Positions 2 to 29,668 of a stretch of DNA of 29,668 bases are shown here, piece after piece. A program made the translations under genes and the position numbers. The stretch is from an uncultured virus (IMG/VR IMGVR_UViG_3300010348_000552) (lineage: Duplodnaviria > Heunggongvirae > Uroviricota > Caudoviricetes): the IMG/VR virus record IMGVR_UViG_3300010348_000552, one strand, 5' to 3'. A model generated the notes under the pieces. It had not been told where the DNA came from, did not search any database, and was given only the letters and a program-made list of their open reading frames with translations. Each line of letters opens with the position of its first letter. The first letter of the stretch is position 1.

Positions 2-775
2 AAGTATTGGGGGGGGCGACTCCCCGGCCTGAACGTGCTGAGAGACAACCTGGACTACTTCGACATTCGGGAAGACATTCTGGTGGACGAGGCCATACGT
101 CTGCCGCACTACATCGAAGACTGCCTTGCGTTGTCAAACATGGGGTTGCTGGAACAAGACGAGAGCGTGAAGATCGAGGCGAACTTCGATGCCTACTTGG
201 CCGAGTATCTACCCGGCCTTGACCCCCACTGCGACTTCGTTGACTGGTTGCTTGATACCTACCGTCGCCTCGGCATAACCTCGCCGCTGTTCGTGCCCTA
301 CCGTAACGGTCTCTACCCCGACCGTTGCCAGGGGATACTTAGGACCACTGCCACCGATGGCACGATTTTGTATTGTGGGGTGCGTGAAGCGGCCTGCAAC
401 GTACTCGACGACTTGTGCTATGACATCGCTGCCGTGGTACGCGGGCTTGATATAGGGACGACGTATCTACCACTGGAATACGCCCTGTACTGGCGTCTCG
501 GTAGAAACCCCCCGCTCTCCTGTCATTTGCCCGAAATACGCTCTCGCGGGGAAAAGATGTCGAAGCAGTCGGGCAACGCCAATGGCTATCGGTTACTTGA
601 TTTACGGGAACGGTTTGACGCGGATGATCTGGCCCGCCACTTAGTCGGGTTGTGTATGGACATTCCCGCCGACCTCAACACCTTTGCTGATGTATGCCAG
701 CATATCGAGTGGGCTTGGCTCAAGCCTCTCGCCCATATTGACATCGAGGAGACAGTATTCGCATGTCAGAGTTGA
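2..775 (+). CDS. Glutamyl-tRNA synthetase-like / GluQ-RS (YadB)-like class I catalytic domain protein, 5' truncated by the window
   Basis: Frame is open from base 2. Motifs: LRDNLDYFDI..E..RLPHY (cf. GluRS L.WLGL.WDE...QS.R...Y), VLDDLCYDIAAVVRGLD (cf. DD...I.HV.RG.D), PPLSCHLPEI (cf. P.F.HLPLI) and GEKMSKQSG (KMSKS loop). Ends ~70 aa after KMSK, so no anticodon-binding domain. HIGH motif would lie upstream of the window. Confidence 0.75.
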   Translation, partial: KYWGGRLPGLNVLRDNLDYFDIREDILVDEAIRLPHYIEDCLALSNMGLLEQDESVKIEANFDAYLAEYLPGLDPHCDFVDWLLDTYRRLGITSPLFVPYRNGLYPDRCQGILRTTATDGTILYCGVREAACNVLDDLCYDIAAVVRGLDIGTTYLPLEYALYWRLGRNPPLSCHLPEIRSRGEKMSKQSGNANGYRLLDLRERFDADDLARHLVGLCMDIPADLNTFADVCQHIEWAWLKPLAHIDIEETVFACQS

Positions 776-1716
776 AGATCAGGTGGCGGCTGCACCGTGA
801 CGACGAAAAGGAACCGACCACGCGGCAGCGTGGCGTCAACGTCTATCGCCAGTTGCAGCAACTCGGGTTTGACGCGGACAAGTGGGACGGTCGGGAAGCC
901 GCCGACATCATTGTGTTGCAGTATTCCATGCGGCTGCTGGACGAGGCTTTGGCAACCGGGGCCACGGTCGTTGCCGACATCAACGACCAAGTGTTCGCCA
1001 AGCATCATGCCTACCACCAGGAGACGATGGCGGGGTTGGCTCGGGTACACGCGGTTGTGGCGGGTTCCCCCCGTCTCGGTCAGAACCTCCAGCGGCTACA
1101 CCCCACGGTGCGGGTCATCGAAGAGGCGGTTGACGGACGGTACTTGGCGGTCGAGAGGAAGAAGCACCAGGGCCTCAACGTCGTCTGGATGGGGATGCAC
1201 GACAACATCATGTACTTCCGTGAGATTGATCCGGCCCTTGAAGAGTTGGCGAAGAAGCACGACTTCACCGTTCACTTCGTATGCCCGCCGAATGATGGGT
1301 TCGGGAAGTCTAACGCCGATAAGGTCAAGACCAAACCCTACCCCGCTCAGTTTCATGCCTGGACGATGGACGACCTACTGGAACAAATGGCTGTGGCCGA
1401 CCTTGCCGTGGTGCCACTTTTTCAGCAGGAATGGACGTGGTGTAAGTGTGCCAATAAGATGCTGTCCTTCATGGCAGCGGGCCTGCCAGTGGTGGCGTCA
1501 CGGGTGCCCTCCTATGTGGCGGTGGCCGAACCGGGGACGGATTCCTTCCTGGCCTACAGTCCCGAAGAGTGGTACGCCGCCCTGGACCAGTTGTTCAGTG
1601 ACAGTGGCTTGCGGTCGAGGATTGGCAAGCGGGCACGGCTGAAGGCCCGGCAGTACAGCATCGAACGGATTGCCGACCAGTGGGTTGACTACTTTCGCCA
1701 AGTTGGTCCGAAGTAG
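763..1716 (+). CDS. Glycosyltransferase, GT-B fold (GT4-like)
   Basis: C-terminal ADLAVVPL...KCANKMLSFMAAGLPVVAS motif and YSIERIADQW terminal helix. GAGGA RBS; start overlaps upstream ORF. Confidence 0.85.
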   Translation: MSELKIRWRLHRDDEKEPTTRQRGVNVYRQLQQLGFDADKWDGREAADIIVLQYSMRLLDEALATGATVVADINDQVFAKHHAYHQETMAGLARVHAVVAGSPRLGQNLQRLHPTVRVIEEAVDGRYLAVERKKHQGLNVVWMGMHDNIMYFREIDPALEELAKKHDFTVHFVCPPNDGFGKSNADKVKTKPYPAQFHAWTMDDLLEQMAVADLAVVPLFQQEWTWCKCANKMLSFMAAGLPVVASRVPSYVAVAEPGTDSFLAYSPEEWYAALDQLFSDSGLRSRIGKRARLKARQYSIERIADQWVDYFRQVGPK

Positions 1717-1721
1717 GCCGT

Positions 1722-1751
1722 TTGACAGGGGGGATAGTGCGGTGCTACCAT
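1722..1751 (+). promoter_or_regulatory. Sigma70-type promoter for the rmlD-like to GT block
   Basis: TTGACA (1722-1727), 18-nt spacer, TG-n-TACCAT (1746-1751), followed by AAGGAG RBS and ATG at 1779. Confidence 0.6.
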
Positions 1752-1778
1752 ACTAACACCACACTAAAGGAGTGGGCC

Positions 1779-2615
1779 ATGATTGTCGTGATTGGTAGCA
1801 CCGGACAGTTGGGGACGGAGTTGGTGAAGGCCTGTGAACGGTTTGGCATAGGGTGTGTCGGCCTGAGCCACGATGAGATTGACGTGACCAGTATCCATGT
1901 CAGCCGGTTCCGAGAGATACACGACAAGCATCCGTCGGAAAGCATCGCCGTAATCAACACGGCGGCCTACCACGACCTGAACAAGTGTGAGGAACACCCC
2001 GAAACAGCCTACAAAGTGAACGCTGTCGGTTCGGAGAATGTCGCCAATGCCTGTGTCGAGTACGGCTGGAAGTACGTCTACGTCTCGACTGACTACTGCT
2101 CAGGTACGCCCACCGACGACAATGGCCTGCCGCGTTCGGTCTACGCCAAGACCAAGTTGATCGGGGAACTGGCGGCTTTGACGCTCTGCCCTGACGCACT
2201 CGTGGTGCGGGTGGGGACGATGTATGGGGCGGCGGGTTGCCGGGCCAAGGGCGGCGGAAACTTCATTGATACGGTAGTCGCCAAGATCAAGGCCCAGCAG
2301 CCCTTCTCACTCCCGAACTACACCAGTGTACTCACGACCTATGCCAAGCACGCCGCTCATCGCATCCTAGACAACTTGGAGAAGTGTGGGGTATGGTACG
2401 CCACGGATGAGTACCAGCCAGCAAGCCACTATGACATCGGACGCCGCGTTCTCGCCCAACTCGGTTTGACTGACATGATCCAGGCCATCAGTTGCGACCC
2501 CAACGACCACCTGCGGCCTAGCCATACCAGTGTGTTGAAGGACAGGCAGTTGCATCTCAAACAACAGACCGACACACCAATCCGCCAGTATCTGAGGGAG
2601 AAGGGCTACCTATAA
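1779..2615 (+). CDS. dTDP-4-dehydrorhamnose reductase-like SDR (RmlD-like)
   Basis: MIVVIGSTGQLG Rossmann motif, INTAAY..L.KCEE.PE.AY.VN, YVSTDY, YAKTK (YxxxK). Start at ATG 1779 with AAGGAG RBS. Confidence 0.85.
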   Translation: MIVVIGSTGQLGTELVKACERFGIGCVGLSHDEIDVTSIHVSRFREIHDKHPSESIAVINTAAYHDLNKCEEHPETAYKVNAVGSENVANACVEYGWKYVYVSTDYCSGTPTDDNGLPRSVYAKTKLIGELAALTLCPDALVVRVGTMYGAAGCRAKGGGNFIDTVVAKIKAQQPFSLPNYTSVLTTYAKHAAHRILDNLEKCGVWYATDEYQPASHYDIGRRVLAQLGLTDMIQAISCDPNDHLRPSHTSVLKDRQLHLKQQTDTPIRQYLREKGYL

Positions 2616-3076
2616 TGGACAAGATCGAACTGGTCAAGGTCGTGCCGCTGGCAGTCAACGCCGATGATCGCGGGGAGTTGGCCGAGTTGCTGCGGTGTGA
2701 CGACCCCGAGTTCACGCAGTACGGCCAGCACTACATGGTCCGCAGCTACAAGGCCGGGACCATCCGTGGACTGCACCGCCACCGGGAACTGATTGACTAC
2801 TTCACCATCGTTCGCGGGGCGGCCAAGTTCCGCTTCTTCGACGAGGAAGGCAACTGCCAGGAAGTCGTCGCCAGTGAACGGAAGCTGGTCAGGATCACGG
2901 TGCCGCCGACTATCTGGCACGGCTGGATGGCCTTGGAGGACGACACCATCCTGATCTCGACTGCCACCGAACCGTACAAGGGCGTAGGTCGTACCGGGGA
3001 ACTAGACGAGGAACGGGTTGACCACGACTACTTCGACGACGAAGACTACGACGCCTGGGCCGTCCAGGCTCGTTAG
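2615..3076 (+). CDS. dTDP-4-dehydrorhamnose 3,5-epimerase-like cupin (RmlC-like)
   Basis: DDRGEL.E, GTIRGLHRH and VPPTIWHGWMAL cupin motifs; translationally coupled (TAATG). Confidence 0.85.
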   Translation: MDKIELVKVVPLAVNADDRGELAELLRCDDPEFTQYGQHYMVRSYKAGTIRGLHRHRELIDYFTIVRGAAKFRFFDEEGNCQEVVASERKLVRITVPPTIWHGWMALEDDTILISTATEPYKGVGRTGELDEERVDHDYFDDEDYDAWAVQAR

Positions 3077-3084
3077 GAGATAGC

Positions 3085-3525
3085 ATGTCTACCAAGTACC
3101 TTGACGCACCGGAAGTTTCAGCCATCGCCGCCGAGTTGGTGAAGCACGACCATCCCCACCTTGTAGGCGTGGAGATCGCCTACTTCTTCTTCGCCAAATA
3201 CGATGGCAAGGGCCTGCTGAAGCACCCCGACGAGTGCGGCAACAAGGTCGGCTATGCCCGGCTGTATCCGCAAGAGTGTCGGACGGTGTTGGGGACGCCA
3301 ACCTTCGGTATTGGTATCCTGCTGAACTGGTGGCGGTGGGCTACCGACGAACAGCGGGTCGCTATCGTGGACCACGAACTCATGCACTGCCAGTACGATC
3401 TCGACACCGAGAAGCCGTCAGTTAGGAAGCATGACTTCGAGGGGTTCGTGGACGAGGTACAGCGGCATGGGGCTTGGGACAAGCGGCTGGAGTTGGTCAA
3501 GGAACAGATGATGTTGGCCGTATGA
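3085..3525 (+). CDS. Putative phage metallopeptidase
   Basis: EQRVAIVDHELMH (HExxH) followed by RKHDFEGFVDEVQRHGAW, typical of this phage family; AGGAG RBS. Confidence 0.75.
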   Translation: MSTKYLDAPEVSAIAAELVKHDHPHLVGVEIAYFFFAKYDGKGLLKHPDECGNKVGYARLYPQECRTVLGTPTFGIGILLNWWRWATDEQRVAIVDHELMHCQYDLDTEKPSVRKHDFEGFVDEVQRHGAWDKRLELVKEQMMLAV

Positions 3526-3791
3526 AGCTGCTTTACTGCCGATCCTGTGGGGATGTGTTCGCTCTCCGTTACGAGGCGAGAACGTGCTTTTGTGGGCGTT
3601 CCTCGGGCCAGTATGATGCCGATGGCCTACATGCTTCCTATGCTGGCCCGGCAGTCCCAATCGGCTTTGACAATGCCTTTTTTCATCACGCCAGAGAACT
3701 ACAGACGGAAAGTGGTCGCGGGAAGAAGTTCACGGCTTTTGTGATCCCAAAGGAGTGTCCGACGATGAGAGGTGCTACATGCCACGAGTAG
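3522..3791 (+). CDS. Small phage-type Zn-binding hypothetical protein
   Basis: MKLLYCRSCGDVF...TCFCG (CxxC, CxC); ATGA overlap with upstream gene. Confidence 0.65.
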   Translation: MKLLYCRSCGDVFALRYEARTCFCGRSSGQYDADGLHASYAGPAVPIGFDNAFFHHARELQTESGRGKKFTAFVIPKECPTMRGATCHE

Positions 3792-4816
3792 TAGTGACGG
3801 GTGGGGCGGGCTACATTGGCTGTTGGGCCACCCAGAAGTTGCTCAGGGCGGGCTATGACGTGACGGTGGTGGATAAGGGCTTCTTCCCCAGTGGCCTGTC
3901 CTACCTCGCCTCCCTGGCCGTGAAGACGGTGCTGGCCGATGTGCGGGACTTTGACCTGAATACCGTTGCCCCCTTTGACTACGTCGTTCACCTCGCCGGT
4001 CTCAGCAACGACCCCTCTGCCGAATACAGTCCGGTTGGCAACCACGAGATGAATGTGGTCGCCACGGAACGACTTTGTGAACAGGCGTCCCAACTGGGCT
4101 GTAAGCGTTTTCTCTTCGCGTCGTCGGCCTCAGTCTATGGCTTCAACGACCAGCCCCGACTGGACGAGACTGCCGCCCTCAACCCCTGTTCCTACTATGC
4201 CGAGTCCAAGGCCAAGGCCGAGTTGGCGGTTGGTAAGTACCAAGCAGACATCGGCGGGATCATCCTCCGACAGGCAACGGTCATGGGCTGGTCACCGAGG
4301 CACCGTAATGATCTCGTGGTCAATGCCATGACCCGTTCGGCCTTAGAGACGGGGAAGATCGTGGTCAACGGTGGCGGTGAGGCCACCCGCCCCTTGATCG
4401 AAGTGCAGGACTTGGCCGAGACTTATGTGCGGCTGCTTCAGGCCCCTGGTGACAAGGTTATCGGTGAGACCTTCAACGTCAACCATCGTCGGGCCGATGG
4501 CACCGTTTTTGAGGGCTACACCATCTCCTGCCTCGGGTTGTGGCTCAAGCACCTGTTGGCCGAGAAGCACGGCCTGAAGTGTGACGTGATCGGCAACTGG
4601 CAGGACAAAGAGGCGCGGTCCTACGACATGACCAGCCGCAAACTGCGTGCGGCTCTGGACTGGGAGCCGCTGCGTGGCGTGGACGCTGCCGTAGCGGACA
4701 TCATGGCCCACCGGGACGAACTGAAGTCATATGACCAAGTGAACATCGCCTGGATGAAGGCCCTGGAACACGGGCAGAAGGTAACCAAGCAGACGGGGAG
4801 CATATTCACGCCATGA
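3779..4816 (+). CDS. NAD-dependent nucleotide-sugar epimerase/dehydratase (extended SDR)
   Basis: VVVTGGAGYIG, VVHLAGLSNDP, FASSASVYG, YAESK (YxxxK), LRQATVMGWSPR.R.DLVVN. Start ATG 3779 with GAGAGG RBS. Confidence 0.9.
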   Translation: MPRVVVTGGAGYIGCWATQKLLRAGYDVTVVDKGFFPSGLSYLASLAVKTVLADVRDFDLNTVAPFDYVVHLAGLSNDPSAEYSPVGNHEMNVVATERLCEQASQLGCKRFLFASSASVYGFNDQPRLDETAALNPCSYYAESKAKAELAVGKYQADIGGIILRQATVMGWSPRHRNDLVVNAMTRSALETGKIVVNGGGEATRPLIEVQDLAETYVRLLQAPGDKVIGETFNVNHRRADGTVFEGYTISCLGLWLKHLLAEKHGLKCDVIGNWQDKEARSYDMTSRKLRAALDWEPLRGVDAAVADIMAHRDELKSYDQVNIAWMKALEHGQKVTKQTGSIFTP

Positions 4817-5817
4817 AGATACTGTTTTTGTCGGAGACGACGCAATGTGACGACCGCTTCCTGTACCTGAAGGCCTTGGTCGAGGCCCTGGCAGATAACG
4901 ACTACGAGCCGACTATCATCTTCACGACGAGCGGGGCACCGTCCGACCACACCTACCAACTGGTGAAGAAGCACGTCGTCCACCACCTGTCCAAGTTGTC
5001 CTTCGAGTCGGAGAACGGGGACTATCTCGGCAAGTTGGTGCGGCACATCGAGAAGCACGAGTACGACTTCCTGGTCGTTAGTCAGGAACGCTTCCCCGGC
5101 TTCTCGGTGACGGGCCTCTTCTCCCTGCTCCAGCACAAGCCCCGGTTAGTCTATCTCGGGGCGGACTGTTCCGACAAGGTGACCCAGGACTGCCGGTTGC
5201 TGGCTCCGCTCGAACCAGTCTTCGTGGCGGTTTCGCAGATGGTCGCGGAACGCTTCATGTCCGACTACGAGGTCCAGATCATTCATGGCCCGGCCATCGC
5301 CCCTGACACCTTGGGCGTAGACATTCGGGCTGAGTTCGGCATCCCCAAGAACACCAAGTTGCTCGGCTACATTGGCAACGTGGACCATGCCATACTCGAC
5401 GTGGTGATTGAAGCCTGCAAGCGTATGCGGTGTGGGCTGCTGGTGGCGGGCGTGGGGGATACGGTCGCGGCTCTCGACGCAATGGGGGGACCAGTCAAGG
5501 TAGTCCCGGCTCTGCCGCAGTGCCGGGGGGACTGGTATCATGCCGTGGACGTGTTCCTGTACCCGGTAAAATGGTCTGGGTTCCCGATGCTGCCGCTGGA
5601 AGCGGCCATGTGTGGGAAGCCGGTGGCCATGACCCCGGTAAGTGATCTACCACGGATGGCGGGGGAACGGTTTGGCTTCTTTGTCAGGGACGCTTCCAGC
5701 GTCGTCAACGCGGTCAAGACGGCGGTAATGGGGGATGTTGCCTCGAACAAGGCGTGGGTCGCGGAGACCTTCAGTCGGGAACAGTTCCTGACGAAGTGGC
5801 AGATCGTCTTTGGTTGA
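4813..5817 (+). CDS. Glycosyltransferase, GT-B fold (GT4-like)
   Basis: VDVFLYPVKWSGFPMLPLEAAMCGKPV (Ex7E-type motif with the first Glu replaced by Ser); ATGA-coupled start. Confidence 0.8.
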   Translation: MKILFLSETTQCDDRFLYLKALVEALADNDYEPTIIFTTSGAPSDHTYQLVKKHVVHHLSKLSFESENGDYLGKLVRHIEKHEYDFLVVSQERFPGFSVTGLFSLLQHKPRLVYLGADCSDKVTQDCRLLAPLEPVFVAVSQMVAERFMSDYEVQIIHGPAIAPDTLGVDIRAEFGIPKNTKLLGYIGNVDHAILDVVIEACKRMRCGLLVAGVGDTVAALDAMGGPVKVVPALPQCRGDWYHAVDVFLYPVKWSGFPMLPLEAAMCGKPVAMTPVSDLPRMAGERFGFFVRDASSVVNAVKTAVMGDVASNKAWVAETFSREQFLTKWQIVFG

Positions 5818-6223
5818 AGTGTTCCACTGCTGCCTCGATACGGGCCATAAACCACTCCAACTCAAGCCTCAGTTCCTTAGCGGACTGGGGCTTGATTCTG
5901 AGGGTTGCCATGCCATAGTAGTAGCCGTCCCGAACCGAGTTGTCAGGGAAGTCAAACAGCAACTCGTACAGGGAACAGGCCTTTGCCCATTCCAGGGCGT
6001 CGAACGGAACCAATGACTTTAGGGCCGCCGGGCAGGTCAGCAGGAAGTACCCGTCCTGAGTGGACTCGTACAGGACGATGTTCACCACGCGGCCATCGGC
6101 CAAACTCGCCACAAAGCAGAACAGACCCTCTTGGCTATAGTCCAGTACCTTCTTCGGGTCCTTCCCCAGGTCCTTCACTACCGACTCCAACCATCGCTTC
6201 AACTGTTCGCTGCTCGAACTCAT
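5771..6223 (-). CDS. Hypothetical protein
   Basis: Protein-like composition begins at MSSSSEQLKRW (ATG 6223). Last gene of the - strand arm; overlaps the convergent GT by 47 nt. Confidence 0.55.
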   Translation of the reverse strand: MSSSSEQLKRWLESVVKDLGKDPKKVLDYSQEGLFCFVASLADGRVVNIVLYESTQDGYFLLTCPAALKSLVPFDALEWAKACSLYELLFDFPDNSVRDGYYYGMATLRIKPQSAKELRLELEWFMARIEAAVEHFNQRRSATSSGTVPD

Positions 6224-6800
6224 CCCTGATCTTCCCGATTTCCATGCACAGTCGCTGTGCCATGAGTGCTTTCTCGGCTTGGGTGCTGCGGCTCTTGAAG
6301 AGGTTTGATACTGCGGTGCGGACGTTGTGCGGTCGCCAGCGGCTTGAGGTGGCGACTTCCCAGAGCATGAGGCGTTCACATTTGGCGAGGGCGTTGCTGC
6401 CCGCCCGAGGGTTCCACAGAAAGCGGCAGATAGCAAACGGCACACCGAGATTGGGAGCAACGCCATCGGCAATCATCCTCACGTAGACATTCACGCCATC
6501 GGTGATCGTCTTCCACGGGTACTGGTAGGACCACTTCATTACGGTCCTGATCTGACTGGGCATCAGCTTCTCGCGGTACTCGTGGAGGATGGCCCCGGCG
6601 TAGCCGACGAGTGCCCACTCGATACCCTGGAGGGACGCGGCCAGTTTGTCGGCCTCTTCGCAGAGCTGCTCGAAGGTCAGGTCGCCGGGCTTGATGGCGT
6701 CGGGCGGTAGGCCACGCCCCATCGAGATCAACTTGTAGCTGCCCTCGATGATTTTGTAGCGGTCAATGAACTCCGGTTCATTCGGCTTCAGGGTTTTCAT
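6135..6800 (-). CDS. Hypothetical phage protein
   Basis: 221-aa ORF with GGAGG RBS, in the co-oriented operon; no motif recognised. Confidence 0.6.
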   Translation of the reverse strand: MKTLKPNEPEFIDRYKIIEGSYKLISMGRGLPPDAIKPGDLTFEQLCEEADKLAASLQGIEWALVGYAGAILHEYREKLMPSQIRTVMKWSYQYPWKTITDGVNVYVRMIADGVAPNLGVPFAICRFLWNPRAGSNALAKCERLMLWEVATSSRWRPHNVRTAVSNLFKSRSTQAEKALMAQRLCMEIGKIRDEFEQRTVEAMVGVGSEGPGEGPEEGTGL

Positions 6801-7281
6801 CAGGTGCCTCCAAGTACGACTTCAGAAAGTCTGCCATCCCCTCAGCCGAAACCGGAATGACGATCTCGGCTCCCCCAAAGAGGGCGTTGAGCAGGCGGGT
6901 GTAGCGTTGAGCGGGCGGCTTGGGGCTACCCTTCTCTTTGGCGTCCACCAGCCCCTCGATGAACTCCCACACGGCACACTGTTCCAGCATGGACAGCCGC
7001 TTCCCCCAAGGCTGTACGCCGCACAGAAACAGCAACTTACTTTGCGGTTCTCCCACCAACTTCGCCAACTCGACCAACATGCCATCCCGGCGACAAATCG
7101 TCTTGAAGGGCCTATTAGAGAGGTTCCAGACGAAGCGGGAGTCGATCTTCAACTCAACCAGCGGGGCCAACCGTTCGGCCATCCAGCGAAAGGTCATGCC
7201 CTTCTTGGCGGCCACGATCTGCATGTACTCGTGGAAGCGGTTGGTGTTCATAAAACGCGGGAACCTATCCGGCATCAGCAA
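6778..7281 (-). CDS. Putative HTH (XRE-like) DNA-binding protein
   Basis: KKGMTFRWMAERL...SRFVWNL...LVELAKLVGEPQSKLLFLCG resembles an XRE-type HTH pattern; GAGGAG RBS. Confidence 0.5.
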   Translation of the reverse strand: MLMPDRFPRFMNTNRFHEYMQIVAAKKGMTFRWMAERLAPLVELKIDSRFVWNLSNRPFKTICRRDGMLVELAKLVGEPQSKLLFLCGVQPWGKRLSMLEQCAVWEFIEGLVDAKEKGSPKPPAQRYTRLLNALFGGAEIVIPVSAEGMADFLKSYLEAPDENPEAE

Positions 7282-14804: not shown

Positions 14805-15517
14805 CTATTTGCGTCCGAATATCTGTGCTAGGTTCCACTTCATCGTCGTCCTCCTCAAACTGGTCGAACACAAAGCACACTGTTCATCGCCATCTCGTTC
14901 ATAGCCATGTGGCATGTCCCACCACCACTCCAGGAATTTCTCTGGGGACTGCATGAACTCTTCAGTCTTTCCCTGCCAAGACAACCGCTGCTGCCAAGTC
15001 GGCCACGCCTTGCGGACGTTATGCATTAGGGCCGCGAACATCTTCGGCCAGCGGGCTTTCGTCTCGGCACGCCTCGATTCGTAGGTGCAGAAAACGCACC
15101 CGAGCCGCTTCCACCCTTCGTCATACAGCGAACAATAGGGCAACTCGCGGCGACGGATGTACCCCCACACATCATCATGCGTCCAGTGGATAATCGGGTT
15201 GATCAGCGTCTTCTCATTGCCGGACTTCCGGCACACGTTGACGATGCCACGCGACCGGCGGCGGCTGCTCTCCTCGGCCCGAATTCCAGTGGCAACAACT
15301 CGGCCAACACCACCGGCTAGTTCGGAATGGCAACCCGTGATACTCGATGTGCTGCCAGAATGACTTCTCGGGTCGTTCAACGATGTGTCTCTGTATGGTG
15401 CTTCCTACCGAACCTCGTCAACTCTGGTGGGCAGAACTCGTTTAGAATGTCTAGGCTGATTGTGTCTGCGGAACGGCCTTCGAGAGTGGTATCAAGCACG
15501 GGTTCGTGTGCAATCAT
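14805..15517 (-). pseudogene. PAPS-reductase-family gene, fragmented over several frames
   Basis: From ATG 15517: ...ILNEFCPPELTRFGRKHH; second frame IVERPEKSFWQHIEYHGLPFRTSRWC; third frame GGVGRVVATGIRAEESSRR...INPIIHW...LYDEGWKRLGCVFC. The SGGKDS PP-loop and CCxxLK segment are missing. Confidence 0.8.
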
Positions 15518-25487: not shown

Positions 25488-25555
25488 CAAGGGACGAAAC
25501 TCGGCTCCATGCCGTGTGATTGTGGGACCACGGTCCTTCAGTCCTATATCCCTTG
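25488..25555 (+). ncRNA. Candidate DUF3800-associated structured RNA
   Basis: Closing stem CAAGGGA/TCCCTTG; hairpins CGGC-TCCAT-GCCG and GATTG..GGGACC/GGTCCT..CAGTC, whose G-U pairs favour the + strand; abuts the DUF3800 stop codon. Confidence 0.6.
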
Positions 25556-25559
25556 GCTA

Positions 25560-26211
25560 TCATTCCAGGGCCGCTAGAGATAGCGGCCTCTTCTTCGTGT
25601 AGTAGACGCCGTACTTGGCCTCCCGCTTGTCATCCATGTCCACCACCAGACTGCACCGCTCCCAGATGCTCACAAGGTACCGCTCCTCCCGCTTTTCGTA
25701 GAGCCGTTGCAGCGCCGTACAACGTGTGCTTGTGCAGCAAAGGCTTGAAGAGTCGCCGGATCATCAGGTCATAGAGTTCGTTGGGATGGTAACGGTATTC
25801 CCGAGAGGCAGCATTGCGGCTGAGCACGTAGTCCAGCACGGCTTCTTTGTGCTTCACAACGGCCTGGAAGCGAACGTCTGTCTGCTGCAGCACCCGGAAT
25901 ACCTCGCGGCGCACTTCGGGCAGGTCGTCAGTGGCATGGAACGCCGCCGCGGTCTTCCCAGCTTGCGGCTGCATCGAGGGCACGCCCCTGAAGTACGGGT
26001 CACTCAGTAACGCCTTGCGCAGCGCGGCGAGCGCCTCCGTCAGCCTGGAAGGGTCGGGGACATCAAGAACGCCGAGCATGAAGAACCGCGAGCAGCCCTC
26101 CTGGCCGATGATGACGCGCCCCTTGCGGTCAAAGAGCACACCGTCGCCGGCCTCATCCACGAAGTAGTTGCGTGAGGTGGGTTCCACCGCTTGATCTGGG
26201 CTCTGCGCCAC
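25560..26211 (-). pseudogene. DUF3800-family (RNase H-like fold) gene with internal deletion and frameshift
   Basis: YFVDEAGD...SRFFMLG...FHATDD..EVRREVF N-terminus. At ~25716 the sequence switches frame to ALQRLYEKREERYL...YGVYYTKKRPLSLAALE*; the family QxxD motif is missing. Confidence 0.8.
25569..25595 (+). terminator. Terminator-like hairpin for the + strand RNA, inside the DUF3800 3' coding end
   Basis: GGCCGCTA-GAGA-TAGCGGCC followed by TCTTCTT. Confidence 0.45.
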
Positions 26212-26219
26212 GCTACTAA

Positions 26220-26295
26220 TCCCCCTCCTCCGCCCCCATGCGGTACTTGATGTCGTAGTTCATGATGAGGTCCAGCTCTTCGTCCGTGAACCCGT
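26220..26295 (-). repeat. Direct repeat copy 1: remnant of a DNA methyltransferase / type IIG RM C-terminal tail
   Basis: Encodes GFTDEELDLIMNYDIKYRMGAEEGD*; 69/76 nt identical to 27378-27453 by manual alignment; supplies the RBS for DUF3800. Confidence 0.85.
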
Positions 26296-26374
26296 CTGTC
26301 TCCGCGTACGCCAGGGATAGTTGTCGAAGGCAGACGAGCGCCGACTGCATGGTTGACAATCCGCAAATCAGGGG

Positions 26375-26490
26375 TTTACAAAGTCTGTCAAGTGCCTATA
26401 ATGACATTGGCTCAATGAGCCAAACCTACATGTTACGGGGTTCGGTTTCGGACCCCGCCAGGAACATCCAGAGCCCCGTTTGGGGCTCTG
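26375..26490 (+). promoter_or_regulatory. Promoter and structured leader of the NYN gene
   Basis: TTTACA, N16, TATAAT (26375-26402); inverted repeats TTGGCTCA-A-TGAGCCAA, GGGGTTCG-GTTT-CGGACCCC and CAGAGCCCC-GTTT-GGGGCTCTG. Confidence 0.65.
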
Positions 26491-26510
26491 CCCATTTGGG
26501 GGTCACACAT

Positions 26511-27368
26511 ATGGCACCGCTACGCACAGTTGTGTTCGTGGATGGCCAGAATTTCCGCAAGAACCTCCAAGCCTTCTCCTTCCAAGCTCCCGGCTCCCCT
26601 CAGCGCTACAAGCTCGATGAGAAGCACTTCAGGTGGCGTGAGTTCTTCGCTGACGTGGTCGCTTGGTTTGCCAAGGAGACAAGTTACGAACATCGCCTTG
26701 TTCGTGCGTACTGGTACAACGCATACGACATGACGCCATTCCAGAGATACCCCGAAGCCGTGAGAAGAGCGCACGCTGAGTGCAGCAGGCACGCGCCCGA
26801 AATAACCCAGGACCAGGTGATCGACCTCGCGCAGCAGTGGCATGCCAAGCAGCATGCCTGGTTCTACGGCAGCCGGCGCCAGATGTTTGAGGAGATCCAG
26901 CGCAAGACAGACTTCCTTGAGTTCAAGTTCGTTGGCCAGTTCCGGGTTGAGCCGTTTACGGTCCGTCACTTCGTACGGAATCACGATGGCACATATGATT
27001 ATCAGGGCACCCAGGTCGGTGAGAAGGGCGTTGACGTCGGCATCGCAGTAGACATGATTGCCAAGATGACGAACTACGACGTGGCCATCATCGTCAGCGG
27101 CGACGCTGATTTCGTCCCGGCAGTCTGCTATCTCAAAGACCACCTACGCGGCGTCTACCAGTTCTCCGTTGCCAAGGGCGTGCCGCCTAGCATCAACTAC
27201 CTGTCTCCATGGCTCAAGGGCATCGTGGATGTTTTTGGGTACTTCGATGAACTGACGCTCCTGAGTGACTACCTCGACCACGGCTCAGGCATTCCTCCAG
27301 CCATCATCAACGAGGTCAAGGGGCGGATTGCTCAGTTGCAGGCCCCCGTATCTCCCACGACGACCTGA
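26511..27368 (+). CDS. NYN-domain (PIN-like, LabA/DUF88) ribonuclease
   Basis: VVFVDGQNF, LVRAYWY, EKGVDVGIAVDMI, AIIVSGDADFVPAV; start ATG 26511. Confidence 0.9.
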   Translation: MAPLRTVVFVDGQNFRKNLQAFSFQAPGSPQRYKLDEKHFRWREFFADVVAWFAKETSYEHRLVRAYWYNAYDMTPFQRYPEAVRRAHAECSRHAPEITQDQVIDLAQQWHAKQHAWFYGSRRQMFEEIQRKTDFLEFKFVGQFRVEPFTVRHFVRNHDGTYDYQGTQVGEKGVDVGIAVDMIAKMTNYDVAIIVSGDADFVPAVCYLKDHLRGVYQFSVAKGVPPSINYLSPWLKGIVDVFGYFDELTLLSDYLDHGSGIPPAIINEVKGRIAQLQAPVSPTTT

Positions 27369-27370
27369 CG

Positions 27371-27673
27371 TTACTCCTCCCCCTCCTCCGCCCCCAGGCG
27401 GTACTTGATGTCATAGTTGATGATGAAGTCCAGTTCCTCGTCCGTGAAACCGTAATGCTCCGCCAGCACACGGTCTATCTCGTCGATAATGGGCTTTGCC
27501 TTTCCAACGTTGACGAGAAAGAACCCGTTCCCACCCAGGGCGAGAAACTGTTTCTCTGCCTCGGCCTCTAACTCCCGCCGAGCCCCATCGTTGTCGAAGG
27601 TCATCCCCAGACACTCGACCGGACCATTCTTCTTCCCATCCTGAAAGCCCAGTGCGCTCTGCTTCTTGCTCAT
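27371..27673 (-). pseudogene. In-frame mosaic remnant of DNA methyltransferase gene(s); contains direct repeat copy 2 (27378-27453)
   Basis: N-terminal GPVECLGMTFDNDGARRE joined within 100 aa to KAKPIIDEIDRVLAEHYGFTDEELDFIINYDIKYRLG. Both are recalled as termini of much larger MTase proteins; no catalytic motifs remain. Confidence 0.65.
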
Positions 27674-28144: not shown

Positions 28145-29668
28145 CTACTTGTATACGGGCACAGTCGGGTGTGACACCTTGAATGACTTGAGGTGTCTCT
28201 CCGCCAGCCCGGTGCAGCCGCTCAGGTCCAGGTAGCCGCCGACGCTCAGGCTGTCCGGAAGCGCCTCCAGCCCGGTGCAGCCGCTCAGGTCCAGATCGCC
28301 CTTGACGCTCAGGCCGTCCGGAAGCGCCTCCAGCCCGGTGCAGCCGCTCAGGTCCAGGTAGCCGCCGACGCTCAGGCTGTCCGGCAGCGCCGTCAGCCCG
28401 GTGCAGCCGCTCAGGTTCAGGTTGCCGCTGACGCTCAGGCCGTCCGGCAGCGCCGCCAGCCCGGTGCCGCCGCGCAGGTCCAGGCAGCCGCCGACGCTCA
28501 GGCCGTCCGGCAGCGCCGCCAGCCCGGTGCAGCCGCCCAGGTACAGGCAGCCGCCGACGCTCAGGCTGTCCGGCAGCGCCGTCAGCCCGGTGCAGCCGCT
28601 CAGGTCCAGGTCGCCGCCGACGCTCAGGCTGTCCGGCAGCGCCGTCAGCCCGGTGCAGCCGCGCAGGTCCAGGTAGCCGCCGACGCTCAGGCCGTCCGGC
28701 AGCGCCGCCAGCCCGGTGCAGCCGCTCAGGTCCAGGTCGCCGCCGACGCTCAGGCTGTCCGGCAGCGCCGTCAGCCCGGTGCAGCCGCGCAGGTCCAGGT
28801 AGCCGCCGACGCTCAGGCCGTCCGGCAGCGCCTCCAGCCCGGTGCAGCCGCGCAGGTCCAGGTCGCCGCTGACGCTCAGGCCGTCCGGCAGCGCCTCCAG
28901 CCCGGTGCAGTCGCGCAGGTCCAGGTAGCCGCCGACGCTCAGGTCGTCCGGCAGCGCCGCCAGCCCGGTGCAGCCGCGCAGGTTCAGGTAGCCGCCGACG
29001 CTCAGGCCGTCCGGAAGCGCCTCCAGCCCGGTGCAGCCGCTCAGGTCCAGATCGCCATTGACGCTCAGGCCGTCCGGAAGCGCCTCCAGCCCGGTGCAGC
29101 CGCTCAGGTACAGATCGCCCTTGACGCTCAGGCCGTCCGGCAGCGCCTCCAGCCCGGTGCAGTCGCCCAGGTCCAGGCTTTTGCCGACGCTCAGGCCGTC
29201 CGGCAGCGTCGCCAGCCCGGTGCAGCCGCGCAGGTACAGATTGCCCTTGACGCTCAGGCCGTCCGGCAGCGTCTCCAGCCCGGTGCAGCCGCTCAGGTCC
29301 AGGTAGCCGCCGACGCTCAGGCCGTCCGGAAGCGCCTCCAGCCCGGTGCAGCCGCTCAGGTCCAGGTCGCCGCCGACGCTCAGGCTGGCCGGCAGCGTCG
29401 TCAGCCCGGTGCAGCCGCTCAGGTTCAGATCGCCATTGACGCTCAGGCCGTCCGGCAGCGTCGCCAGCCCGGTGCAGCCGCGCAGGTACAGAACGCCCTT
29501 GACGCTCAGGCCGTCCGGCAGCGTCTCCAGCCCGGTGCAGCCGCTCAGGTTCAGGTAGCCGCCGACGCTCAGGCCGTCCGGCAGCGCCTCCAGCCCGGTG
29601 CAGCCGCGCAGGTCCAGATCGCCCTTGACGCTCAGGCCGTCCGGCAGCGCCTCCAGCCCGGTGCAGCC
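28145..29668 (-). CDS. Leucine-rich-repeat protein, 5' truncated by the window (at least 507 aa; absent from the ORF track)
   Basis: Open - strand frame from 29668 to TAG at 28145; consensus GCTGLEALPDGLSVGGYLDLS; ends ...LAERHLKSFKVSHPTVPVYK*. Confidence 0.9.
   Translation of the reverse strand, partial: GCTGLEALPDGLSVKGDLDLRGCTGLEALPDGLSVGGYLNLSGCTGLETLPDGLSVKGVLYLRGCTGLATLPDGLSVNGDLNLSGCTGLTTLPASLSVGGDLDLSGCTGLEALPDGLSVGGYLDLSGCTGLETLPDGLSVKGNLYLRGCTGLATLPDGLSVGKSLDLGDCTGLEALPDGLSVKGDLYLSGCTGLEALPDGLSVNGDLDLSGCTGLEALPDGLSVGGYLNLRGCTGLAALPDDLSVGGYLDLRDCTGLEALPDGLSVSGDLDLRGCTGLEALPDGLSVGGYLDLRGCTGLTALPDSLSVGGDLDLSGCTGLAALPDGLSVGGYLDLRGCTGLTALPDSLSVGGDLDLSGCTGLTALPDSLSVGGCLYLGGCTGLAALPDGLSVGGCLDLRGGTGLAALPDGLSVSGNLNLSGCTGLTALPDSLSVGGYLDLSGCTGLEALPDGLSVKGDLDLSGCTGLEALPDSLSVGGYLDLSGCTGLAERHLKSFKVSHPTVPVYK
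28203..29668 (-). repeat. 63-bp tandem repeat, about 23 units
   Basis: CAGCCCGGTGCAG / GACGCTCAGG elements recur with a 63-nt period and no indels. Confidence 0.97.

Follow-up and report, generated by a model that had tools for sequence, protein, structure and literature searches.

Paralogues of aminoacyl-tRNA synthetases that act on targets other than tRNA are few. In the available part of a review (PMC9437257), YadB (GluQRS) is the only paralogue listed for glutamyl-tRNA synthetase (GluRS), and MshC, the mycothiol cysteine:GlcN-inositol ligase, is a class I paralogue directed at a sugar. Phages have glycosylation systems of their own. Phage-encoded glycosyltransferases (GTs) glycosylate capsid and tail-tube subunits of mycobacteriophage virions (Freeman et al. 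2023, as cited in PMC12619734), and phage DNA glycan hypermodification draws on GT-A and GT-B enzymes together with epimerases and secondary GTs, the published GTs adjoining 5mYOX/TET or ThyS genes (Pyle et al., 10.1101/2023.12.21.572611, in the portion available). The terms 'tRNA synthetase' and 'aminoacyl' are absent from the text of the latter, and searches aimed at the combination, covering open PubMed Central papers and bioRxiv, brought up no description of a phage GluRS-like gene in a glycan cluster. Here, we report such a gene at the start of a 29,668-nucleotide stretch of DNA (the window) from IMG/VR record IMGVR_UViG_3300010348_000552, an uncultured virus of the Caudoviricetes. Gene order links this GluRS offshoot to sugar chemistry, and the link recurs in many unrelated uncultured phages. 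We propose, with a probability of about one half, that the encoded protein is a tRNA-independent, ATP-dependent ligase whose product is a phage-made glycan bearing an acidic amino acid, with virion proteins as the probable carriers of this glycan.

The window opens inside the gene. The full open reading frame (ORF) encodes 311 amino acids (aa) at positions 31451-32386 of the virus record (G000), starts 161 nt upstream of the window and has its stop codon at window positions 773-775. Its N-terminus, MKDRHLRFCVSLTGIEDGGLHVGN, is preceded by a GGAGGA ribosome site, and the N-terminal stretch reads RFCVSLTG-IEDG-GLHVGN. The ORF shares 4 nt with the Methyltransf_24 gene upstream of it and 13 nt with the GT4 gene that follows, and it is translationally coupled to both. 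In word-based and profile searches that covered about 15 billion proteins, this 311-331 aa family was represented by only three clusters: the query itself, P0004 (327 aa, 47% identical) and P0005 (331 aa, 35% identical, on a 1-kb contig). Across these members, which are 35-47% identical, H21, G23 and N24 of the HIGH-type motif are invariant (3/3) together with K239, S241 and K242 of the ATP loop, and the HxGN form of the HIGH motif occurs also in GluRS rows of the alignment. R201 aligns with the arginine that binds the side-chain carboxylate in GluRS and GluQRS. No Anticodon_2 match was found in the protein, which ends at residue 311, where the anticodon domain of GluRS would begin; all family members stop within 311-331 aa. 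An earlier note on this DNA, made from its letters, had described a catalytic domain with a DD/R motif, HLP and KMSKQ, a missing anticodon domain and an overlap with the start of a GT-B gene. Each of these is found in place, and the HIGH motif that the note sought upstream is present as HVGN in the full ORF.

Judged by sequence comparison, the protein is a very divergent GluRS-family catalytic domain, and the homology is firm. The Pfam model PF00749 (tRNA-synt_1c) stays below threshold (11.9 bits vs 23.4, E 0.1) and covers the N-terminal 29 residues only; NCBIfam models of GluQRS and GluRS match residues 186-295 (E 4e-7 to 3e-4), and GluRS chains in the PDB are matched at E 1e-4 with the single sequence and 1.5e-7 with a profile. 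A profile search of 1.84 billion representatives returned 175 proteins at E<=1e-3. When 20 chosen from these were scanned with Pfam, all 19 from outside the family were tRNA-synt_1c (19/19), and the family member P0005 had no match. Comparison of profiles (hhalign) with ten GluRS gave Prob 99.7 and E 2.9e-25 over 273 columns, aligning residues 4-293 with GluRS positions 6-299 of 479. The model of the ESM Atlas itself (pTM 0.78) aligns to tRNA-synt_1c clusters with a TM of 0.68-0.72. An AlphaFold2 (AF2) model (pLDDT 85.8) matches GluRS and GluQRS by Foldseek at E about 1e-16 (GluRS E 5e-17), although this match is not independent of the homology above, as the alignment on which the model was built contained GluRS. 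A Rossmann-type class I fold is present in these models, and the insertion domain is little conserved and modelled at pLDDT 56-71.

In E. coli GluQRS the glutamate is held by R9, A11 (through its backbone), S13, E45, Y172 and R190, and an alpha-amino-binding role of that Glu is documented (PMC12736043, in the sections available). Two alignments (A2, A3) map these six contacts to R7, C9, S11, G47, E183 and R201, of which three are identical, one is the backbone contact and two are changed (E45 to Gly47, Y172 to Glu183). Both carboxylate-binding arginines, R7 and R201, are invariant in all three family members. Gly47 and Glu183 are also found in 3/3 members, and the glycine sits in a new aromatic motif, V-R/K-Y-G-W-x-W; the RIEDTD motif of GluRS is replaced by VRYGWQW. 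We take the corresponding Glu of Thermus GluRS to have the same alpha-amino-binding role. Our reading is that the enzyme may still form an adenylate from an anionic acid in a pocket that has been rebuilt, with glutamate as a first guess for the acid and not as a result.

Identity with GluQRS itself was considered and rejected. The TIGR03838 model gives 29.7 bits against a cut-off of 276.7, its match limited to residues 188-246, and in a quick maximum-likelihood (ML) tree the protein lies outside the clade of five GluQRS-like rows (SH-aLRT 99), which is nested in GluRS. The Cys cluster of the insertion, invariant in GluQRS-like rows as C98, C100 and C120 and presumably zinc-binding there, has no counterpart in the aligned stretch. 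The GluQ part of the label 'GluRS/GluQ-like' in the earlier note is not supported, given the score far below cut-off, the position outside the clade and the two changed contacts among the six.

The candidate ligase belongs to an operon in which stops and starts mostly overlap or abut. From record position 25514 the gene order is a methyltransferase (MT)-GT2-GT4 fusion, a Capsule_synth-like gene, a methyltransferase, a TIM-barrel gene, Methyltransf_24, the candidate ligase and GT4, followed by RmlD-like, cupin, metallopeptidase, Cys-rich, SDR and second GT4 genes; the last eight genes of the plus-strand block are those on which this report centres (Table 1). The fusion is a single 713-aa protein upstream of the window (record 25514-27655; L003:10515-12656). 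The 355-aa gene two places upstream of the ligase matches no family and no PDB sequence, and the ESM Atlas gives it a TIM-barrel fold like that of glycoside hydrolases (GH), to which GHL10/DUF4015 clusters align with a TM of about 0.7 and a beta-amylase cluster with one of 0.80. Further GTs stand in the structural part of the same strand, one GT4 gene directly 3' of the capsid gene and a GT9 (heptosyltransferase-like) and a GT2 gene, along with a PfkB kinase gene, among capsid, adaptor and tail genes; soluble phage GTs in or beside structural genes are a feature of virion-glycosylation systems. In total, the glycan toolkit comprises at least eight GT-type domains, four methyltransferase domains and a 6-deoxy-sugar branch made up of the RmlD-like, cupin and SDR genes. 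None of the 12 genes of record 28074-37428 has a 19-residue window of mean hydropathy >= 1.6, which rules out a Wzx/Wzy-type route within the block and fits assembly on a soluble acceptor.

This hydropathy scan agrees with the earlier note, which had seen no flippase, polymerase or membrane gene in the block, and the RmlD-like gene, the second GT and the phage metallopeptidase that it named are likewise present. Three of its assignments held in part. The 'RmlC-like' gene is indeed a cupin and scores best as WbuC/FdtA, RmlC being weaker; the supposed dehydratase belongs to the epimerase/dehydratase-family SDRs, with a family match that fits neither activity specifically and a substrate that is not assignable; and the supposed Zn protein is a small Cys-rich ORF without a family match, for which zinc binding is assumed from its CxxC...CxC pattern. 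For the RmlD-like gene, an ATG at 1779 is a likelier start than 1722.

Table 1. Features of the window and of the virus record (window positions unless stated otherwise)
Feature	Position	Strand	Remarks
GluRS-like class I catalytic-domain protein	2..775	+	last 257 of 311 codons
HIGH-type motif HVGN	residues 21-24	+	upstream of window
NVLDDLCYDIAAVVRGLD / DDLCYDIAAVVRGLD	407..451	+	contains D190/D191 and R201
HLP motif	524..532	+	H229-P231, invariant in three family members
KMSKQ, KMSKS-type ATP loop	554..568	+	residues 239-243
GT4-type (GT-B) glycosyltransferase	763..1716	+	55% identical homologue in L005
RmlD-like 4-ketoreductase	1779..2615	+	278 aa, PF04321 E 2.5e-40
Cupin, WbuC/FdtA/RmlC type (sugar ketoisomerase or epimerase-like)	2615..3076	+
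Putative phage metallopeptidase	3085..3525	+	PF18894 E 2e-20
Small Cys-rich ORF	3522..3791	+	MKLLYCRSCGD...CFCG
SDR nucleotide-sugar epimerase/dehydratase-family enzyme	3755..4816	+
Second GT4-type glycosyltransferase	4813..5817	+	last gene of plus-strand late block
PAPS-reductase-like gene	14805-15380	-	191 aa, E 8e-20
NYN ribonuclease-type domain gene	26262-27368	+	368 aa, E 1.2e-12
63-bp repeat	28145-29668	-	63-bp unit x 23.3, 89% matches, G+C about 0.72; reaches contig end
Late/structural block	record 26-37428	+	gp23-like major capsid, SU10-adaptor-like, GH25 lysin, very large unknowns, laminin-G tail-fibre-like, many sugar genes
Replication block		-	SSB, UvsX/RecA-like, SbcC-like, primase-helicase, exonuclease, helicase

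In the mechanism that we propose, the carboxylate of an acid, most likely glutamate or another acidic amino acid, would be converted to an acyl-adenylate by means of HVGN and KMSKQ, and the acyl group would then be accepted by a sugar, through one of its hydroxyls or amines, within a glycan built by the soluble enzymes of the phage. The product bond could be an ester, as made by GluQRS on a diol, or an amide, as made by MshC on an amino sugar. The glycan would carry methylated and deoxy sugars and would be assembled without a membrane step. Given that its genes belong to the structural operon and neighbour the capsid gene, virion proteins are its likeliest carriers. All of the chemistry is prediction: that the protein is catalytically active, which acid it uses, which atom accepts the acyl group and which protein bears the glycan.

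The setting is that of a phage. Window positions 1-29542 correspond to G000:C1:31612-61153, the end of a linear virus record of 61,153 bases with a completeness of 67% (CheckV), so that about one third of the phage genome lies outside the 61 kb. The record falls into two arms, the late and structural block on the plus strand and the replication block on the minus strand. Its gp23-like capsid protein is only about 25% identical to that of any deposited phage. With the capsid, adaptor and primase-helicase genes on the same record, the earlier note was right to take the block for viral and not for a host O-antigen locus. A contig from a separate, independent study spans L001:257-6000 with 9 substitutions, 0 indels and 0 substitutions in the synthetase-like ORF; the stretch is therefore real in nature. 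Among metagenome contigs, a search with the 311-aa family found only a 79-kb contig of the same phage.

Three other features of the window may be recorded here. The PAPS-reductase-like gene, between the primase-helicase and exonuclease genes, matches only the C-terminal part of its domain. The NYN gene is the sole plus-strand gene inside the minus-strand arm. The terminal 63-bp repeat codes for leucine-rich repeats of 21 residues each (LxLxGCTGLxxLPDGLSVxGx); a reading frame is open on the other strand as well, and Ig-like Pfam matches there are spurious.

The 311-331 aa family is very rare. Searches of viral and genome contigs with it found no relatives, and a profile scan of genome contigs gave only five matches, all partial and weak (23-37% identity), from assemblies of bacteria and archaea, which are presumably ordinary GluRS genes. 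A second, diverged phage nevertheless appears to carry the ligase, the TIM-barrel and the RmlD-like genes together on one contig, because P0004, P0154 (the sole relative of the 355-aa TIM-barrel neighbour, at 45% identity) and P0160 (59% identical to the RmlD-like protein) have identical contig figures ('2 contigs, longest 42653'). Single-protein scans of viral contigs with the 355-aa neighbour and the RmlD-like gene gave no matches, and the viral RmlD genes reached with a profile of the RmlD clade were all distant (24-32% identity). In protein clusters, on the other hand, the RmlD-like gene has 17 further clusters at 48-80% identity against the three of the ligase. The related viral contig L005 carries, besides its GT4, methyltransferase, B12-radical-SAM, Capsule_synth and GT2 genes, and neither the ligase nor Rml-type genes. 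As a separate observation, the B12-binding radical-SAM enzyme of L005 is accompanied by an N6_N4 DNA-methylase-family protein (L005:6896-8919), both between sugar methyltransferases and Capsule_synth, and an N6_N4 methylase is also found 3' of the short GluRS-like gene in L026, a member of the type described next.

A shorter and commoner form has a similar context in other phages. By sequence features, the nearest entries of the ESM Atlas were clusters (75, 60 and 157 members) of viral tRNA-synt_1c proteins, 231-254 aa long and limited to the catalytic domain, and the nearest by structure was a mostly viral cluster of 298 aa with 382 members. Two proteins from the protein search, P0088 and P0104, led to viral loci, and a profile of six sequences led to 24 loci. 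The 289 ORFs of the 24 loci formed 124 clusters, of which representatives of 105 were scanned with Pfam, several others having been scanned earlier (L024-L027). A recurring module emerged, running from capsid, a small ORF, GT4 (often fused to an FkbM methyltransferase) and GT2 to the short ligase-like gene, and on, often through an ABC permease and binding protein, to TIM-barrel, head-completion and tail-completion genes. A GT gene is present at 15/24 loci, four of them counted by membership of a cluster whose other members match PF00535; a head-module gene is found at 15/24 and ABC transporter parts at 11/24. The TIM-barrel gene is present at 16/24 and absent despite full flanks at two (L048, L049), and six loci reach a contig end within about 1.5 kb, where it cannot be assessed. 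These loci are not independent and fall, by G+C (0.35-0.66) and identity, into about eleven groups; counted by group, the TIM barrel occurs in 9/10 assessable and a GT in 6/11. The GT linkage that the earlier note wished to see surveyed among homologues therefore recurs, in these 15 short-type loci and in the presumed second phage. The capsid-adjacent GT4 and the GT2 domain of our phage are homologous to the GT4 and GT2 of the module (E 6e-11 and 1e-10), and the TIM-barrel family of the short module matches GH35/GH42 beta-galactosidases (E 4e-8). Homology, motifs, gene order with its coupling, and recurrence of context are matters of observation.

Some loci of the short type have features of their own. 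The importer parts (BPD_transp_2 permease, Peripla_BP_4 binding protein and sometimes an ABC ATPase) occur in L030, L031, L033, L034, L038 and L040-L045, between the GluRS-like and TIM-barrel genes. On a 340-kb viral contig (L035:3028-10683) the short GluRS-like and TIM-barrel genes are flanked by PrkA and DUF444-SpoVR genes; an M28 peptidase is encoded upstream, and a GT is not in view. L048 and L049, jumbo-phage contigs of 230 and 461 kb, encode at 5965-6885 a catalytic-domain-only GluRS of 306 aa with a full PF00749 match (E 6.5e-61), near a PTH2 peptidyl-tRNA hydrolase and an exoribonuclease, and are probably a separate, tRNA-related type. PHROGs holds a family for neither ligase type, only weak matches to two families of unknown function being found there, and no cultured phage was found with either type (0 matches for one, 2 weak ones for the other).

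By hhalign, the 311-331 aa family aligns with the short form at E 3e-16 and with GluQRS-like rows at E 3.2e-15, and better with GluRS. The short form is a single clade of the quick ML tree (SH-aLRT 100), and the three long-form members are a clade (99) that joins P0141 (90), with long branches. P0141, a protein of 322 aa from the representative library, is itself very divergent and GluRS-like, has IRIDYGYW instead of RIEDTD and is the nearest outgroup. The short-form clade and the clade of the long form with P0141 meet the GluRS group at one node, and one origin or two for the phage forms cannot be told apart in this tree. It is a tentative and rather doubtful extension of our proposal that the rare 311-331 aa and the common 231-256 aa forms might together represent an undescribed class of GluRS-derived, tRNA-independent ligases with which phages aminoacylate the glycans of virion proteins.

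Other explanations differ from the proposed virion-glycan ligase mainly in the acceptor. In one, the protein would have the kind of target that GluQRS has, a queuosine-like or other modified base, either of host tRNA or of phage DNA, and the neighbouring GTs could glycosylate the same base, for example shielding tRNA or DNA from host nucleases. GluQRS being the only GluRS paralogue in the review (PMC9437257, available part) lends this some weight, and as far as the accessible parts of the sources go, DNA bases do carry glycans built by phage GTs (10.1101/2023.12.21.572611) and vertebrate queuosine is glycosylated by QTMAN and QTGAL (10.64898/2026.06.28.735034). The third of the genome outside the record and the jumbo-phage catalytic-domain GluRS beside PTH2 and an exoribonuclease (L048/L049) point the same way. 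QTMAN and QTGAL are, we presume, members of GT4 and GT2. However, Tet_JBP (PF12851), thymidylate-synthase-like (PF00303) and C5-methylase (PF00145) models have no match at E<=1 in the 61 kb of the 67%-complete record, the same 61 kb holds no match to TGT/DpdA or QueC and no tRNA gene, and none of these families appeared in the Pfam scans of the 105/124 neighbour clusters or of L024-L027. The hydroxymethylase/TET or deazaguanine genes that the earlier note looked for upstream are thus absent from the 61 kb of the record. The gene also lies in the structural operon, away from the replication genes, outside the GluQRS-like clade and without the insertion Cys cluster, and the protein is acidic (net charge -15, -22 and -7 across the three members), a weak argument against nucleic-acid binding in that one true GluRS of the set is even more acidic. 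We consider an aminoacylated base unlikely, and a base that is glycosylated as well equally so. Of the carriers named in the earlier note, DNA, tRNA and capsid, the capsid fits the context best, and the first two find no modification gene in the 61 kb.

A product off the virion, either a change of a host envelope polysaccharide (blocking superinfection, for example) or a soluble, mycothiol-like aminoacyl-glycoside, is rather unlikely too. In its favour are the adjacent GT4, whose top NCBIfam match is MshA, with BshA lower in the list (E 1.3e-6 and 0.0085, both weak), the Capsule_synth-type and GT9 heptosyltransferase-like genes carried by the phage, and the importer parts (11/24) and GH35/42-like enzyme of the short-type modules, which suit sugar scavenging or metabolism. 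Yet the MshA match reaches 27.6 bits against a cut-off of 462.5, the 12-gene block has no flippase, polymerase, lipid-carrier transferase or other membrane protein, and the genes are set among capsid, adaptor and tail genes. There is finally a slim chance that the protein is a decayed or non-catalytic remnant, serving as scaffold or binding subunit, or has an unrelated activity at a common insertion spot for accessory genes. A score below the Pfam threshold, the replaced RIEDTD-type motif, the poorly conserved insertion domain and the rarity of the family would suit a remnant. A remnant would hardly be expected to keep the ATP motifs and both arginines invariant at 35-47% identity, an ORF that is intact and free of substitutions in an independent sample, a strong ribosome site with overlapping stops and starts, and like neighbours in distant phages of 0.35-0.66 G+C.

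Several observations weigh against an acidic aminoacyl ligase for virion glycans. Activity and product are read from sequence context, and the incompleteness of the record limits every statement of absence made from it. The family has three members, one of them on a 1-kb contig without context, and linkage in the second phage is deduced from matching contig figures and not from DNA that was read. The many RmlD clusters, together with an L005 devoid of the ligase, imply that the ligase is an optional add-on to a broader glycan module. With the alpha-amino-binding Glu changed to Gly47 and Tyr172 to Glu183, the acid may not be glutamate. Among the short-type loci, 9/24 have no GT, and the TIM-barrel proteins encoded beside the long and the short ligase type are not significantly alike in sequence (hhalign Prob 1.7).

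If the extension to a class of phage ligases is true, GluRS would have given rise to a second functional offshoot besides GluQRS, no earlier synthetase paralogue would be known from viral glycosylation, and capsid glycans decorated with amino acids would be the product. An aminoacylated glycan as the product would also put a name to an enzyme for amino-acid decoration of sugars; to our knowledge, the enzymes behind many such decorations of bacterial surface glycans have not been named. Phage virion glycosylation would be widened from plain sugars to charged, zwitterionic coats, which could affect adsorption, stability and recognition by host or immune system, and the operon would provide a compact, soluble and membrane-free toolkit for glycoengineering.

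Compared with described systems, the phage protein has its best profile match in canonical bacterial GluRS, with which it shares the fold and an insertion domain at the same position; it differs in having no anticodon-binding domain, in the loss of RIEDTD and in the absence of tRNA genes nearby. With GluQRS it has in common the reduction to a GluRS catalytic domain, about 300 aa long and not followed by an anticodon domain, HIGH- and KMSKS-type motifs and both arginines, and like GluQRS it would be expected to activate an acid without tRNA and esterify a diol-like hydroxyl, whereas it is phage-borne among glycan genes with no queuosine genes nearby. The short phage GluRS-like proteins of 231-256 aa are likewise phage-borne and catalytic-domain-only, and their late operons also hold GT4, GT2, methyltransferase and GH-like TIM-barrel genes beside them; they differ in the missing insertion domain, in their HLGH and xxSK motifs, in an acidic residue kept in RFDD and in the ABC importer genes often found with them, of which this phage has none. 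Phage-encoded GTs are shared with mycobacteriophage virion glycosylation, for which the passage in PMC12619734 mentions neither amino-acid decoration nor a synthetase-like gene, and DNA hypermodification differs by its 5mYOX/TET or ThyS source, absent from the 61 kb of this phage. MshC, compared here by description only, is derived from CysRS and not GluRS, is cellular and makes a soluble thiol; like the protein proposed here, it is a class I synthetase paralogue with a sugar and not tRNA as its target, and it has a GT4 partner, MshA (PMC9437257, available part).

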